The position numbers were made by a program, and so were the translations under genes. The notes below the pieces were generated by a model that saw only the letters and a list, made by a program, of their open reading frames with translations, did no database searches and was not told the DNA's origin. A stretch of 22,990 bases of DNA, taken from Candidatus Bilamarchaeaceae archaeon. Its GTDB lineage: Archaea; Micrarchaeota; Micrarchaeia; Anstonellales; Bilamarchaeaceae. The stretch is taken from positions 1 through 22,990 of the forward strand of contig JAVZJR010000007.1 in assembly GCA_038870635.1 (NCBI GenBank), in the 5' to 3' direction. Shown piece after piece: positions 3,441 to 22,990 of this stretch (position 1 is its first letter; each line of letters begins with the position of its first letter).

Positions 3441-3454
3441 GTTCTAGAAATCTA

Positions 3455-6348
3455 GATATTCATACCGTCTAGTGGATGCCTAGGCTTACGCCCACGCGGC
3501 CACGCGGCAAGCTGCGATAATCTCCGGGTAGCCGCATGCAGGCTTTGATCCGGAGGATTGGCGGTGTACTTTCCGGCTAACTGGGAAGTACGAAAACTCC
3601 CCGAAATGAAGCGTCTTAGTAGGGGAAGGAAAAGAAATCAATCGAGATCCGGTTAGTAACACGAGTGAAAGCCGGACAGACCGTCCTGAATACTCTATGG
3701 TAACATAGAGTAGATGTGGTGAGGTTAGTACCATCCATTTTCCTACCAGAAGTCAGCTGGAACGCTGCGCCATAGCGGGTGAAAGCCCCGTATGGAAAAG
3801 AAAATGGAGGGAACTCGAAGAGTAGTGTCCTCTTGATAGGGGGCATGAAGATGGGGGTATCAACCTCCAAGTCTAAATATGGGGCGTAAGACCGATAGCG
3901 CATTTAGTAGCGCGAGCGAAAGGTGAAAAGAACCGGGGGACCGGTGTGAAAAGACCTGAAACTAGACGGTTACAGCAGGACAAGGCACAAAAGGGTAGGA
4001 CTGCAGAAGTGAATGCTGGTAACAGCAGGAACGATGCAGTTTAACCAGTGTCTTGTCTTTCTTCTCGAAGCAAGAGCCAGGGAGTTTATGTGCGTGGCGA
4101 GACGAAAGTCGAAGGGAAACCAAGTGCCCGCAATACCGCAAGGTATGAGGGGCGTTGTGGTAATTCGCGACTAGTCACTCACATAAGACCCGAAGCCGTT
4201 GTGATCTACGCCCGAGCAGGGCGAAGCCAGCTTGACAGCTGGTGGAGGCCCGCAACTAGTGGTGGTATATTCCCCTTAGGTGACTTGGGTGTAGGGGTGA
4301 TAGTCCTGTCGAACACGGCAATAGCGAGTTCCTCCCAAAATGTGTCTCAGCACAGCGTCCTTGGAGTGAGATACAAGGGTAGAGCACTGATCAGACAGAG
4401 CGGCTCCGAAAGGGGTCACTGTCTTTTCAAACTCCGAATCTTGTATCCACGAAGAAGAGGGCAGTTGGGTTCACGGGGTAAGCTTGTGGACCTATACGGG
4501 ATTGACCGTACGTTGGGTTAAGGACCCTAAATGCTGGTTAAGTGCGAACTGCAAAGAAGTCTCTATTCAGAGACAGCCGGGAGGTAGGCTTAGAAGCAGC
4601 CATCCTTTAAACAACGCGTAATAGCGGACCGGCCGAGAATGCAGACTTTGAAGATTACCGGGGCTAAACCAGCTTCCGATACCCAACCTAGGCGAAAGCC
4701 TATAGAGTAGGGAGGCGAACGGATGGCGCAGAAGTAGGTTCGTGAGAACCTATGGAGCCTTCTGTTATGAATATCCTGGTGTTAGTAACAGCAATATCTA
4801 GGTGAGAATCCTAGACACCTTATAGAGCAAGGTTTCCTCAGCAACGTTCGTCAGCTGAGGGTTAGGCGATCCTAAGCCTCATGGTAATTCCTCTGAGGCG
4901 AAATTAGGGAAGCCGGTTAATATTCCGGCCCCACAGAGGTAGGTGCCGCAAGGCATGCCAACTTTCGGACGCCTTTGGATAGGTGAAGCGGCTGCGGCCG
5001 TCTGAGGAGAGTAACTTCGCGGAGTCTCATTATGAGGAGAAGCGAATGAAACTCCAAGGGGAAACTTCATCAAATCCAGGGGCCCATGAAAACGAGGTTG
5101 GAACGATCCTCTGTGCTCGTACCAAGAACCAGTACAGGTGCTCTAGCTGAAAAGGCTAAGGTGTGTCGGGAGAACCCGGGTAAGGGAATTCGGCATATTG
5201 GCCCCGTATCTTCGGTAGAAGGGGTGCCTTCGCATGCGCAATGCGGAGGTCTCAGTAACAAGGGGGGAGCGACTGTTTACCAAAAACACAGGTCACCGCA
5301 AAGTTGAAAAGCCTAGTATGGTGGCCGACGCCTGCTCACTGCCAGTACCTGAAAACGGGGTTCAACCTGGAGAAGGGCTGGTAAAGAGCGGGGGTAACTC
5401 TGACCCTCTTAAGGTAGCGTAATACCTCGCCGCTTAATTGGCGGCTTGCATGAATGGCGTAACGACTCCCCCACTGTCCCTACCTGGGACCTGGTGAACT
5501 CACTATCCGGTGAAGATGCCGGAGACTCCCAGTGGGAAACGAAGACTCCATGGAGCTTTACCGCAGTCTGGTGTTGTGGTACGAGTTATACTACCGAGAG
5601 TAAGTGGGAGCCGTCGAACCGTTGCTTCCGGGTAACGGGGAGGCGAAAGTGTAACACCACTTAGTATGACTTGTATTGCTTACTCGAAAGAGGACAGCGC
5701 CAGGTGGGCGGTTCGGCTGGGGCGGTACGCCCTCGATAAGGAAACAAGGGCGCCCAATGCTCTGCTCATCCCGGTCAGAAATCGGGAGTAGAGGGTGAAA
5801 GACAAATGCAGGGCTGACTGTATCCCTAAAAGCGTGGGATGCAGAGACGAAAGTCGGGCTTAGCGAACATAGATACCTTATTGATGAGGGTTCTATCTGT
5901 CAGACAAGCTACCCTGGAGGTAACAGGCTCGTCGCGGGCGAGAGTACACATCGACCCCGCGGTTTGGTACATCGCTGTCGGCTTGGGACATCCTGGTGGG
6001 GCAGGACCCGCCAAGGGTTGGGTTGTTCATCCATTAAAGTCCCACATGAGCTGGGTTCAGTACGTCGCGAGACAGTACGGTAGTATCTACTGGGAGCGTT
6101 TGCCTCTTGAGAGGAAGGATCTCTGAGTACGAGAGGAACGGAGATCCGGCGCCTCTAGTCTACCGGTTGTGAAATACGCACTGCCGGGCAGCCACGCGCC
6201 AAGTGATAAGACCTGAAAGCATCTAAGGTCGAAGCACTTCTCAAGACGAGGAGGCATGAACCGCGGATAGCAGATCCGTTTGATAGGACCGGAGTGTAAG
6301 CGGTTAGCGAAAGCGAGCCGTTCAGCTTGCGGTTACTAAAGGTTCATT
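3455..6348 (+). rRNA. rrl: 23S ribosomal RNA, archaeal, not linked to 16S or 5S (ends approximate)
   Basis: Conserved blocks GCAAGCTGCGATAA, GGTAGGCTTAGAAGCAGCCATC, CTCTTAAGGTAGCG, TAACAGGCT, GAGCTGGGTTCAG and the sarcin-ricin loop AGTACGAGAGGAAC. About 2.9 kb, GC-rich against an AT-rich background. Confidence 0.98.
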
Positions 6349-6388
6349 CCAAACTCGCGCACATTCTGCTTTTTTCCCTTCCCATTCT
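6349..6388 (+). other. 3' arm of the 23S pre-rRNA processing stem
   Basis: Inverted repeat of 3398-3440, followed by a T-rich tract. Confidence 0.8.
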
Positions 6389-16719: not shown

Positions 16720-16734
16720 TTCTTGAGTGATCCT

Positions 16735-17724
16735 ATGAATTTTTTAGAGCTATGTAAAGATGACTTAAGAGATGTAGAAAAAGAAATGATGTTATTAGTA
16801 GAAAAAAGAGAAAAGCGCACTTTTGGTATTATTCCTTCTTTTCTAGAACGAGGTGGCAAAAGAATGCGCCCTCTTCTTTTACTTCTTTTTTTTCACGCCT
16901 TTAACGGTAAGGACCTAAAAAATGCTAAGAGAATGGCCGCTTTAATAGAAATGTTTCATAATTTTACTCTGATTCACGATGATATAGAAGATAATTCTCG
17001 GTATAGAAGAGGCAAACCAACATTACATATTGAATATGGCATTCCGATGGCGCTTAATAGTGGTGATGCATTGTACACTCTTGTTTTAAAAGAGATAAGT
17101 GAATTAGATATGGAACCATCTCGGGTTGTTAGTCTGATGCGCCTTTGTTCTAATGCTTTTCTTCAAGTAGTAGAAGGACAAGGAATTGAAATATCGTGGG
17201 AGCAAGAAAACAGTTTCGAAATAAAAGAAAAAGACTATTATCATATGATATCAAAAAAAACTGGTGCTTTAATTGCTCTTTCTTGCGAGGTAGGTGCGTA
17301 TCTTGCTGGTGCAACCGAGGAAGAACAGCAAGTTGCAAGGAAATTTGGTGAAAATATCGGTGTTGCTTTTCAGATTTGCGACGATATTTTAAATTTAACT
17401 GCGCAGTTTGAGAAATATAAAAAAGAAATAGGCGGGGATATAACTGAGGGAAAGAGAACGCTGATGGTAATAAAAACACTTGAAATAGCCGATGAAAAGG
17501 ATAGAGAAGTATTAAAAGAGATTATTTCAAGTCGTACAACAAATCAAAAAAGAATAGAGGAAGCAATAAGTATAATAAAAAAGTACGGGGCATTGGAATA
17601 TGCTGCTGAAAAAGCCCGTTTGCTTGTCGAACAAGCACAACAACTTTTGATTATTTTAAAGCCCTCTCCTTATAAAACAGCTCTTCTTCAAATTGCAGAT
17701 TATGTTTTAACAAGGGAAAATTAG
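16735..17724 (+). CDS. idsA: Polyprenyl diphosphate synthase, probably geranylgeranyl diphosphate synthase
   Basis: GGKRMRP, first Asp-rich motif HNFTLIHDDIED..RRG with Phe five residues upstream (short-chain type), GQ, KKTGAL, AFQICDD and GDITEGKRT. ATG 16735 follows SD-like GAGTGA. Confidence 0.9.
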   Translation: MNFLELCKDDLRDVEKEMMLLVEKREKRTFGIIPSFLERGGKRMRPLLLLLFFHAFNGKDLKNAKRMAALIEMFHNFTLIHDDIEDNSRYRRGKPTLHIEYGIPMALNSGDALYTLVLKEISELDMEPSRVVSLMRLCSNAFLQVVEGQGIEISWEQENSFEIKEKDYYHMISKKTGALIALSCEVGAYLAGATEEEQQVARKFGENIGVAFQICDDILNLTAQFEKYKKEIGGDITEGKRTLMVIKTLEIADEKDREVLKEIISSRTTNQKRIEEAISIIKKYGALEYAAEKARLLVEQAQQLLIILKPSPYKTALLQIADYVLTREN

Positions 17725-20460: not shown

Positions 20461-20511
20461 ACTCACGCTTCAAGAGAATGGTGCATTAAGTTAGCCAATT
20501 CCGACAACGCG
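20461..20511 (+). other. 5' arm of the 16S pre-rRNA processing stem with BHB motif
   Basis: ACTCACGCTTCA-AGAG-AAT-GGTGCATTAAG pairs with CTTAATGCAC-AT-TTCT-AAA-TGAAGCGTGAGT (22141-22171): a 4-bp helix AGAG/UUCU flanked by 3-nt bulges AAU and AAA. ACAACGCG also pairs with TGCGTTGT. Confidence 0.88.
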
Positions 20512-21010
20512 ATAGTCTCCTATATATTCGCTTTGCAGCGATCAACTCCAGTTGATCCTGCTGGAGGGTACTGCTATCAGACTTCGATTAAGCCATGCAA
20601 GTCTACGGTTGGACTTCCAACCGTGGCGGACGGCTGAGTAACACGTAGTCAACTTACCCTAAGGACGGGGATAACCTCGGGAAACTGAGGATAACCCCCG
20701 ATAGATGATGGAAACTGGAATGTTCCATCATTTAAAAAGCTGGTGAATTGGAGCCAGACTGCCTTAGGATAGGACTGCGGGGGATTAGGTAGTTGGTGAG
20801 GTAACGGCCCACCAAGCCGATAATCCCTAGGGGCCATGGGAGTGGTGGCCCCCAGAAGGGCACTGAGACAAGGGCCCTAGTCCTACGGGATGCAGCAGGC
20901 GCGAAACCTTTACAATGCGCGAAAGCGTGATAGGGGAAGTCTGAGTGGCGGAAACTTAGTTTCCGTCTTTTGCTGAGTGTAAATAGCTCGGCGAATAAGG
21001 GTGTGGGCAA

Positions 21011-21052
21011 ACACGCCCTTCGAGCATTTGACAGTCGTAGGGAGTGGCCTAT
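21011..21052 (+). other. 42-nt BHB intron in 16S rRNA (helix 18, after ~E. coli 510)
   Basis: Interrupts the conserved GGGCAA|GACTGGTG. Central helix GGGC(21005-08)/GCCU(21047-50), bulges AA^A and AU^G, paired intron arms; excision restores the consensus. Confidence 0.9.
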
Positions 21053-21152
21053 GACTGGTGGCAGCCGCCGCGGTAACACCAGCGCCTCAAGTGGTACCCA
21101 CGAATATTGGGCCTAAAGCGTCCGTAGCCGGTCTAGTCCGTCTTCTGTGAAA

Positions 21153-21191
21153 AGATGTTGCCTCGCTTTATTGCGAGACTTCGTCTCACAA
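21153..21191 (+). other. 39-nt BHB intron in 16S rRNA (helix 21, after ~E. coli 609)
   Basis: Interrupts the conserved GTGAAA|T. Central helix GUGA(21147-50)/UCAC(21186-89), bulges AA^A and AA^U, intron-side helix GAUG/CGUC and inner hairpin CUCGC/GCGAG. Confidence 0.88.
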
Positions 21192-21355
21192 TGTTGGGGC
21201 TTAACCCTAACGCGTGCAGAAGATACCACTAGACTCGGGAGCGGGGGAGGACAGGGGTACACCCGGGGTAGGGGTAAAATCCGTTGATCCTGGGTGGACC
21301 ACCAGTGGCGAAGGCGCCTGTCCAAAACGCGTCCGACGGTGAGGGACGAAAGCTG

Positions 21356-21389
<34 letters not shown>

Positions 21390-21491
21390 CAGCTGTAAAT
21401 TATGTAGACTTCGGTGTTACGCTAGAGTAATCTAGCGTAGTGCTGTAGCGTAGGTGTTAAGTCTACCGCCTGGGGAGTACGATCGCAAGAT

Positions 21492-21527
<36 letters not shown>

Positions 21528-21663
21528 CCGTGGATGCTACGGTTCAATTGGATACAACGCCGGGAACATCACCAAGGGCGACGGCAGTATGAAGGCCAGA
21601 CTAAAGATCTTGCCTGACGAGCCGAGAGGTATTGCATGGCCATCGTCAGCTCGTGGCGTGAAC

Positions 21664-21695
<32 letters not shown>

Positions 21696-21965
21696 ATGCC
21701 CTTAGTTGCTAATCTCTTCTCCGGAAGGGATGCACTCTAGGGGGACTGCCCGCGTTAAGTGGGAGGAAGGAGTGGGCGACGGTAGGTCAGTATGGTCCGA
21801 AACCCTTGGGCTACACGCGGCATACAATGGGCGGAACAGCGGGCTGCGACTCCGAGAGGAGGAGCTAATCCCATAAATCCGCTCTTAGTTCGGATTGAGG
21901 GTTGCAACTCACCCTCATGAAGCTGGAATGGCTAGTAATCGCGGGTCATCATCCCGCGGTGAATG

Positions 21966-21997
<32 letters not shown>

Positions 21998-22122
21998 GTC
22001 ACCCAAATGTGTTTTCGGTGAGGCTTCGGTTATTGCCGAATTCGAACCGATGATACGTGAGGGGGGCTAAGTCGTAACAAGGTATCCGTAGGGGAACCTG
22101 CGGATAGATCACCTCCAAAATT

Positions 22123-22171
22123 TGCGTTGTGCGAGGATTGCTTAATGCACATTTCTAAATGAAGCGTGAGT
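22123..22171 (+). other. 3' arm of the 16S pre-rRNA processing stem
   Basis: Inverted repeat of 20461-20511. Confidence 0.88.
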
Positions 22172-22175
22172 TCAT

Positions 22176-22988
22176 TTATCTCTTAAGCGTAATAAGAACT
22201 TTCTTTTCTGCTTTTCCTTTTAATTTAAGTATGTTTAGAATAAGTTTTACCTCTCTTCTCCTTTTCTTTATTAGTCTATACTTTTCTTTTTCATTCATTT
22301 GTGTTTTTTGTATTTTCTTAACAGCTGCTGCATAATGTTTTTTTATGTTATTTATATCTTCATCTGAATAGGAGTAAGTTTTATTTTCTCTTAATTTTAA
22401 CATAGCTTCTTCTAAATCACTTTTAGCCACTCTTAATATTAGCTTAAGATAAGATAATGATATGGGTTTATTTTTATTTAATTTATAGAATAAAGTACAA
22501 CTTTCATATTCTCTTAATTGTTTACACCATTTACAGAAATCGTCTATATTAGCAGAGCTATTGTTTTTTATGAAATTTTTTAATGTATTTATAAAATAAT
22601 GCTCTTTTGCTCTAAAGAAATCATATGCTGCACATTTTATCTGTAATCCGTGTGCATTAATTTTCTCTAACTTTCCTGCAACTTCTAAAATAAGTGCAAT
22701 ATATGGTAATGATAACTCTTCTCCTTTATCCTTAGATTTTATCTTCTCTCTGTTATTCTTTATCCATTCAAATGCTTCATCTTCATTACTAAAATCTAAC
22801 TTATCAATAGTTTCCTTATTGAAGAGATAATTATCATATGCTCCACATTTTATCTGTAATCCGTGTGCATTAATTTTCTCTAACTTTCCTGCAACTTCTA
22901 AAATAAGTGCAATATATGGTAATGATAACTCTTCTCCTTTATCCTTAGATTTTATCTTCTCTCTGTTATTCTTTATCCATTCAAATGC
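22176..22988 (-). CDS. 3' part of a larger hypothetical protein with 71-aa tandem repeats (starts beyond the window)
   Basis: Manual translation shows that the frame of ORF 22176-22430 stays open to the window edge: ...AFEWIKNNREKIKSKDKGEELSLPYIALILEVAGKLEKINAHGLQIKC(G/A)AYD... twice, then a basic C-terminus. Confidence 0.8.
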   Translation of the reverse strand, partial: AFEWIKNNREKIKSKDKGEELSLPYIALILEVAGKLEKINAHGLQIKCGAYDNYLFNKETIDKLDFSNEDEAFEWIKNNREKIKSKDKGEELSLPYIALILEVAGKLEKINAHGLQIKCAAYDFFRAKEHYFINTLKNFIKNNSSANIDDFCKWCKQLREYESCTLFYKLNKNKPISLSYLKLILRVAKSDLEEAMLKLRENKTYSYSDEDINNIKKHYAAAVKKIQKTQMNEKEKYRLIKKRRREVKLILNILKLKGKAEKKVLITLKR

Positions 22989-22990
22989 TT
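22620..22990. repeat. Tandem repeat with a 213-bp period (22620-22777 vs 22833-22990)
   Basis: 158-bp visible overlap, identical except G22630/C22843; the period equals 71 codons, in frame. Confidence 0.95.

Follow-up and report, generated by a model that had tools for sequence, protein, structure and literature searches.

The 16S rRNA gene on a contig of Candidatus Bilamarchaeaceae archaeon is interrupted by 42 nt (21011–21052, + strand) directly after E. coli position 509, in helix 18. The whole stretch of DNA that was analysed, 22,990 nucleotides long, is referred to as the window. The interruption raises two questions: whether it is an intron that is removed from the RNA, and why its arms can pair both with each other and with the exons on either side.

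The insert at site 509

The features that define the insert are as follows.

20545..22117, + strand: 16S rRNA gene with two inserts (Rfam RF01959, 1395.9 bits)
21003..21011, + strand: 5' side of the bulge-helix-bulge (BHB), with outer helix GU, central helix GGGC and bulge AAA; predicted cut between 21010 and 21011 (from sequence; pairs kept in 26 of 26 family members)
21011..21052, + strand: 42-nt BHB intron at site 509 in helix 18, member of family A (from the BHB, homology borders and the family model)
21047..21055, + strand: 3' side of the BHB, with central helix GCCU, bulge AUG and outer helix AC; predicted cut between 21052 and 21053 (from sequence; in RNA contigs of a congener 21010 is directly followed by 21053)

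E. coli numbering was taken from a full 16S sequence (L094); a 1520-nt 16S gene in a public E. coli record (L093:207-1726) has an atypical V3–530 region and was set aside. On this numbering the last exon base before the insert is 509, in agreement with the position of about 510 given in the initial annotation, and the central helix GGGC corresponds to 504–507, so that the overlap with pseudoknot bases 505–507 claimed there holds.

In the BHB, G21005–C21008 pair with G21047–U21050, including one G·U pair. The bulges are AAA (21009–21011) and AUG (21051–21053), the outer helix has 2 bp only (G21003-C21055 and U21004-A21054), and the intron stem, formed by 21012–21023 with 21035–21046, has 12 positions with G·A and U·U mismatches. 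Helices, bulges and both stem mismatches are as first described. The motif has the hBHBh' architecture, i.e. a 4-bp central helix, two opposite 3-nt bulges and flanking helices (the outer one of 2 bp), and the insert is a small hairpin intron by size (<50 nt), by its hairpin and by having no homing-endonuclease ORF.

Cutting after the second base of each bulge releases 42 nt and restores the junction GGGCAA–GACUGGUG. The same junction is unbroken in the intron-free gene of a member of the same genus (L006) and in 36 of the 99 genomes of the family. The cuts predicted from the BHB are therefore the borders given by intron-free relatives, as had been claimed for the EndA cutting rule. With the borders fixed by homology, a 4-bp central helix together with 3 bp of intron stem arose in 0.2% of 100000 shuffles of the insert. 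Central and outer helices are kept in all 26 family A members compared, and the central helix in all 20 introns at site 509, including four that are unrelated in sequence.

A near-identical intron (3 changes) occupies site 509 in another genome of the genus (L035). A DNA contig from run X1 spans 20878–21134 with 0 differences, although X1 may be the source of the window itself and is then not independent. Taken with the same-site introns in other genomes, this contig rules out an assembly error and upholds the insert as present in the DNA. The 42-nt insert is very probably a protein-spliced archaeal BHB intron.

Splicing enzymes and predicted splicing pathway

An EndA of 389 aa, matching the ε2 EndA of ARMAN-2 (4FZ2) over its full length (E 1e-126), and an RtcB (E 2.2e-168) are encoded in the genome; endonuclease and ligase, as expected of a host of BHB introns, are thus both present. 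A second, shorter protein with an EndA domain (173 aa, E 7e-10) is encoded at G000:C2:102401-102634 (L002:1249-1770). According to the accessible part of PMC3239211, the ε2 type cuts both strict and relaxed BHB motifs, which fits the strict motif at 509 as well as a relaxed motif at a second site, 609.

In the proposed pathway, pre-16S RNA would adopt the BHB at 509, the ε2-type EndA would cut after A21010 and U21052, and RtcB would join the exons and probably circularise the 42-mer. Bases 505–512 would then form the helix-18 pseudoknot and the uS4 contact. There is little doubt on our part about this order of events, in which EndA cuts and RtcB joins before the pseudoknot at 505–507 and the S4 contact at 508–512 would form. 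In bacteria, S4 no longer binds when 509 and 510 are both mutated, and efficient translation requires the helix-18 pseudoknot (accessible part of PMC2665224). We infer the cutting itself from the borders, the motif, its conservation and the enzymes, all of which are observed, and splicing of the 509 intron is to that extent supported.

RNA from a congener

Contigs from RNA runs X8 and X9 skip exactly 21011–21052 and, at the second site, 39 nt; a skip in run X11 was left out, its short side being only 18 letters. The alleles with the skip belong to a congener (L217, 96% identical in 16S) and show 9 differences in 335 nt. The DNA gene of the congener was not found in the metagenome search, which gave four stretches (L214–L217), all intron-free and RNA-like. 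Each of the four runs from the 3' trailer straight into the 5' leader, with the joint at the cut points of a BHB in the processing stem, and both introns are absent. Two processing-stem variants with nearly the same 16S occur among them. The corresponding elements in the window are the following.

20463..20500, + strand: 5' arm of the pre-16S processing stem with its own BHB (central helix 20473–20476, predicted cut between 20478 and 20479; from sequence, with L214–L217 joined at the matching point)
22124..22170, + strand: 3' arm of the pre-16S processing stem (central helix 22153–22156, predicted cut between 22158 and 22159; from sequence)

Circular pre-16S is known from other archaea (PMC7714728, in the part accessible), and we infer that L214–L217 are RNA assemblies of such circles. 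Taken as RNA, they show that EndA and a ligase act on pre-16S in this genus.

In the tree, the congener is nested between the window and G001, with bootstrap values of 97 and 99, and the 509 introns of these two differ at 3 of 42 positions. Since both neighbours have near-identical introns, the congener gene can be expected to carry the intron, and we consider it likely that it does and that the congener RNA is spliced. Exact loss of the intron also occurs (see below), and hence the absence of the intron from the congener RNA may simply be inherited. Among the joints listed for the RNA and DNA runs, none was a circular intron junction.

Second intron and the remainder of the window

Alignment to the intron-free gene L006 reveals two inserts in the 16S gene of the window, of 42 and 39 nt. 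The shorter one was absent from the initial annotation.

21153..21191, + strand: second intron, 39 nt, after E. coli position 609 in helix 21 (alignment to relatives; RNA contigs skip 39 nt)

It has a central helix GUGA/UCAC, bulges AAA and AAU and an outer helix of 1 bp, i.e. a relaxed BHB. Site 609 is occupied in 6 of 81 loci; near-identical copies of the intron are present in G005 and G006, and three others hold an unrelated family of 81–84 nt. The 609 intron falls within the V4 amplicon.

Searches of the genome gave no second 16S copy in the 859-kb assembly and no further copies of the 509 or the 609 intron. The 23S gene, at 3448–6356, is unlinked from the 16S gene. An Rfam scan of the window yielded LSU and SSU matches only and no group I intron match; with the length of 42 nt, this led us to reject a group I identity for the 509 insert.

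Elsewhere in the window, 22620–22990 contains a direct repeat with a period of 213 nt (158 nt at 99%) in an ORF that is open at the contig end. The repeat continues at the end of contig C6; hence C6 and C7 probably adjoin in the genome, the assembly having broken at a gene for a repeat protein. Genes for a diphosphomevalonate decarboxylase-like protein, a GHMP kinase and a polyprenyl synthetase lie at 223–2337 and 16723–17724 and represent parts of an isoprenoid pathway in a reduced DPANN genome.

A predicted second fold across both cut sites

The BHB is not the predicted ground state. The region folds instead as two hairpins (–31.2 kcal/mol, z –5.2), each of which involves one exon flank.

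20997..21020, + strand: alternative hairpin 1, 9 bp, intron 5' arm 21012–21020 with upstream exon 20997–21005; the 5' cut site is in the 6-nt loop (fold prediction)
21032..21057, + strand: alternative hairpin 2, 10 bp, inner motif 21032–21041 with 21048–21057, across the 3' cut site (fold prediction, covariation)

In a 68-nt piece, the BHB-constrained ensemble lies 13.4 kcal/mol above the two hairpins. Within the whole 5' domain the gap to the BHB fold is 9.8 kcal/mol at 37 °C and 6.8 at 65 °C; nearest-neighbour values are rough for motifs with bulges. The median gap between the folds is 9.6 for the 20 introns at site 509, as compared with 0.6–7.2 at other sites with at least two introns. The borders of two single inserts with large gaps, at 824 and 1277, are doubtful, and we did not include these among the second folds.

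The RNAalifold consensus of 26 family A members is the two hairpins. Across these members the BHB fold is 89.2% paired with 5 doubly changed pairs, and the second fold 92.9% paired with 2 doubly changed pairs, a result in which kin can beat such shuffles without structure. Hairpin 2 by itself reaches 96.5% pairing, and at 2 of its pairs both partners have changed.

In 24 of 29 members the last intron base is paired with its hairpin-2 partner, whereas the shuffled mean is 14.5 and none of 20000 shuffles reached this count (kinship uncorrected); the other 5 of the 29 are mismatched there. This base is U in 18 of 26 family A members versus A in 99 of 139 introns at other sites, and a later member (L270) adds a G-C state to the pair. 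The covarying evidence comprises at least 3 distinct compensated states and 8 changes on a weakly supported tree; the members are kin, and the independent events are therefore few.

The asymmetries of conservation are more telling signs of the second fold than covariation. G60 and G61, which are shared by both folds, never change, though the BHB partner is U in 7 and 3 of 26 members, respectively; G62, a position not included in hairpin 2, has a U as partner in 14 cases and has itself become A in 10 of these. Family A retains the motif ACRGUY without change, while the partner of the motif in the BHB fold varies or is absent, and ACRGUY survives in a 38-nt member (L252) that has lost most of that partner. 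The sole change of the first bulge base (A to U, in L069) comes with a U to A change in the hairpin-2 partner. Both mismatches of the intron stem fall at positions that are paired in the second fold.

In 19 of 26 family A members the intron pairs with the upstream exon at z<–2; the same holds for none of the 4 unrelated 509 introns and for 1 of 122 introns at other sites. Pairing with the downstream exon is weak when taken alone: it reaches z<–2 in 1 of 26 members, and a 5-bp downstream-exon match arises in 18% of shuffles of one sequence. The second fold is absent from the 4 unrelated introns at 509, and no general exon pairing was found among introns at other sites. We put it at about even odds that the second fold of family A is under selection.

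Distribution among relatives

Matches to 16S were obtained in 92 of 101 genomes of relatives, and 88 loci were taken, one of them a duplicate. These loci contain 219 inserts of at least 12 nt, 195 of which are up to 100 nt long (median 43). A 4-bp central helix at the homology borders is present in 162 of the 219, as compared with 8–18 in 20 shuffles for the order. Mini-introns are common in the order: at least one is found in 41 of 61 near-full 16S genes and none in 20, the maximum being 27. About 40 distinct mini-intron sites exist in 16S across the order, and the most intron-rich genes are L048 (G014) with 27, L037 (G005) with 15, L074 (G031) with 12, and L020 (G006) and L049 (G030) with 10 each.

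A survey of the site, which the initial annotation had proposed, found 509 filled in 20 of the 83 related loci that cover it. All searches pooled gave 34 distinct introns at 509; 30 belong to family A, and the other 4 are unrelated. By a sequence model (R1), family A is present in 31 of 99 genomes of the family, as one copy each and only at site 509; the model does not include structure, so that weak, diverged copies may be missed. By pattern, it was found in 30 of 176 genomes of the order, all within one taxonomic family, Bilamarchaeaceae. Its spread is patchy over three clades. Among 17 titled records with a 509 intron, 14 are labelled Micrarchaeota or Micrarchaeia, one Ca. Bilamarchaeum (a member of Anstonellales), one 'ainarchaeum sp.' and one 'uncultured archaeon'.

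Intron-free genes (L006, L273–L276) are nested among 509 carriers in the tree, which indicates that exact loss or replacement happens. This, together with the unbroken junction in the 36 genomes mentioned above, makes the 509 intron dispensable.

A scan of all genomes for inserts of 30–60 nt at the site gave at least 119 stretches, of which 94 lay outside 16S and matched by chance; L163 was dropped as an intron-free gene with a fortuitous match. A loose pattern applied to 401 genomes of the phylum gave mostly chance among the matches listed, and 3 new 509 members. Neither among the relatives' loci nor among the matches listed for the 401 genomes was a long or homing-endonuclease form seen at 509, and the family A motif had no occurrence in viral contigs.

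Another intron family of the order, of about 42 nt, occupies 7 different 16S sites in 10 copies (L020, L035–L037, L071, L072), a distribution pointing to apparent movement between sites. Inserts of 577–823 nt with BHB borders occur in the 16S genes of L046, L047, L050, L051, L054, L062, L073, L074 and L087, at sites that also hold short forms, and are probably homing-endonuclease introns.

Introns in the pseudoknot strand of the 530 loop were noted in 15 loci, at site 525 in L037, L048 and L049 and at site 526 in L039–L044, L046, L047, L051, L067, L073 and L083. Both sites lie within the usual 515F primer site, and 16S mini-introns, numbering up to 27 per gene and including those at 525 and 526, would bias amplicon surveys. 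Two different 16S genes per assembly were seen in G399 (L272 and L277, 88% identical) and in G047 (L030 and L087), probably owing to contamination.

Possible origin and role of the exon-complementary arms

An explanation that we regard as quite possible, if short of probable, is that the intron is spliced and its exon-complementary arms are left over from its birth or mutation by fold-back (template-switch) copying of the flanks, the second fold having no function. The 5' arm would then be the reverse complement of the upstream exon, and the 3' arm would start with the reverse complement of the downstream exon. A perfect inverted copy of 10–11 nt of the upstream exon in L072, L132 and L186 and an inner direct copy of exon sequence in L009, L096 and L151 are consistent with such copying. 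So is the rarity of flank pairing at other sites (upstream in 1 of 122 introns), which also implies that pairing of this kind is no general function needed for splicing. However, the exon-pairing strands are better kept than their partners inside the intron, and loops vary freely in length (introns of 38–55 nt) while the motif stays. Moreover, much of the variation is G·U-compatible and not exact Watson–Crick, which points to pairing in RNA.

Pairing in RNA would have a role if the two folds were the states of a switch. In the nascent RNA, the intron would first pair with both exon flanks, and the two hairpins would hide the cut sites. The 3' strand of helix 18 (21079–21088), helped by proteins, would reclaim the exon strands; the intron arms would then be free to pair with each other, and splicing would follow, and report on, the folding of helix 18. 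In a constrained fold of the 5' domain the BHB stands on a formed helix 18, and on this model splicing may wait for helix 18 to fold. The energy gap to the BHB is large, and proteins would have to pay it. The full combination, namely a two-state switch that masks the splice sites until helix 18 folds, arms that guide re-entry of the excised intron, and birth by fold-back copying, is put forward tentatively.

Re-entry may also be considered by itself. Here the arms would serve spread: the excised intron would pair with an intron-free 16S RNA on both sides of 509/510 and act as a splint that aligns its own ends with those of the exons, and EndA and RtcB would reinsert it by reverse splicing. For the circularly read intron and the spliced exon, a duplex of –23.3 kcal/mol is predicted in which the junction AA is unpaired. 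Reverse splicing at 509/510 would explain why family A is confined to one site, with one copy per genome in 31 of 99 genomes, as against 7 sites for the other family, and the patchy spread over three clades agrees with it. On the other hand, the duplex formed in trans is not a canonical BHB, and an RNA-to-DNA step is needed, while searches of the window's genome (89.6% complete) with one family each, RVT_1 for reverse transcriptase and LAGLIDADG_3, gave no match. Patchy gain and exact loss are explained by recombination between rRNA alleles, with no need for reverse splicing, and spread as the purpose of the arms seems to us unlikely.

We think it very improbable that ACRGUY is a protein-binding loop or that the excised intron uses it in trans, with the conserved 23S stretch CGACUGUUUA (window 5267–5280) as one conceivable target. 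Averaged over 29 members, no target of the motif region scores better than that stretch (–11.0 kcal/mol), which would also provide a partner for the invariant A that faces a G in hairpin 2. The pairing amounts to 6–7 bp only, however, and the nucleotides behind the motif track the last base of the intron itself and not the 23S sequence. C/D boxes or a K-turn were not seen in the alignments by eye, and ACA changes to ACG in 4 of 26 members, which makes it unfit for an ACA box; a C/D or H/ACA guide RNA reading of the 509 intron was rejected on these grounds.

That the insert is not removed at all, being an expansion segment or cut without ligation, or that it is an assembly error, is the least credible reading, since a BHB that is not the predicted ground state and RNA that is the congener's only are outweighed by a central helix that does not vary among the members or the unrelated introns at 509, and by a site that splits the very bases whose double mutation abolishes S4 binding in bacteria (accessible part of PMC2665224).

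Comparison with known systems

The reading of the 509 insert as a spliced BHB intron places it in a published kind, short hairpin BHB introns in 16S. In the accessible part of Jay and Inskeep 2015 (PMC4496867), 13 intron loci are given for 16S (374, 548, 722, 781, 803, 901, 908, 919, 978, 1093, 1205, 1213 and 1391), 7 of which hold small (<50 nt) hairpin introns. Neither 509 nor 609 is among these 13 Thermoproteales loci, in line with the suggestion of the initial annotation that a site near 510 is outside those commonly described. Site 509 was not found in the published lists so far as these were accessible. The resemblance to the small 16S introns of Thermoproteales, Desulfurococcales and Caldiarchaeum covered by the same source is nevertheless close: they are without ORFs, shorter than 50 nt, closed as a hairpin by the BHB and located in a conserved bulge of 16S, and the relatives studied here also use sites near 781, 908, 919 and 1093. 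In contrast to those introns, the host here is a Micrarchaeon with ε2 EndA, and the accessible part of PMC4496867 mentions no conserved second fold that pairs with the exons.

The ε2 EndA of ARMAN-2 is the same enzyme type, but the introns described with it are in tRNA (Fujishima et al. 2011, PMC3239211, accessible part), whereas those described here are in 16S rRNA. The transposed tRNA introns of Thermoproteales (Fujishima et al. 2010, as reported in the accessible part of PMC4090602) are related short BHB introns at many positions, unlike family A, which occupies a single site and whose sequence mirrors the flanks there. The same source describes the transposition mechanism of BHB introns without ORFs as unknown.

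Site 509, dense 16S mini-introns in Anstonellales and a BHB intron with conserved hairpins masking its splice sites were not found reported in the main texts and abstracts searched, mostly of open-access papers. The accessible parts of PMC12918454, PMC11291895, PMC8784108, PMC4090602, PMC12397907 and 10.64898/2026.10.13.758758 contain none of the three. What is new is a family at a single site whose arms pair with both exon flanks, with a conserved second fold that hides both cut sites.

With 30 members at one site, arms that mirror the exons beside them, and close relatives whose alleles lack an intron there or carry a different one, family A makes a small testable system, for which a 70-nt RNA and a characterised enzyme type suffice. 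It bears on the origin and mobility of BHB introns and on the timing of rRNA splicing relative to 30S assembly.

In group I introns, pairing with the exons is by a guide (P1/P10). BHB introns occur beside group I introns in rRNA genes, with Micrarchaeota among the hosts (Nawrocki et al. 2018, PMC6125680, accessible part, which mentions the BHB introns without positions). Like group I introns, the 509 intron pairs with both exons. Group I introns are ribozymes of at least 250 nt in which exon pairing positions the cuts, whereas the 509 intron, at 42 nt, lacks a ribozyme core, and while it is paired with the exons the fold that can be cut is excluded.
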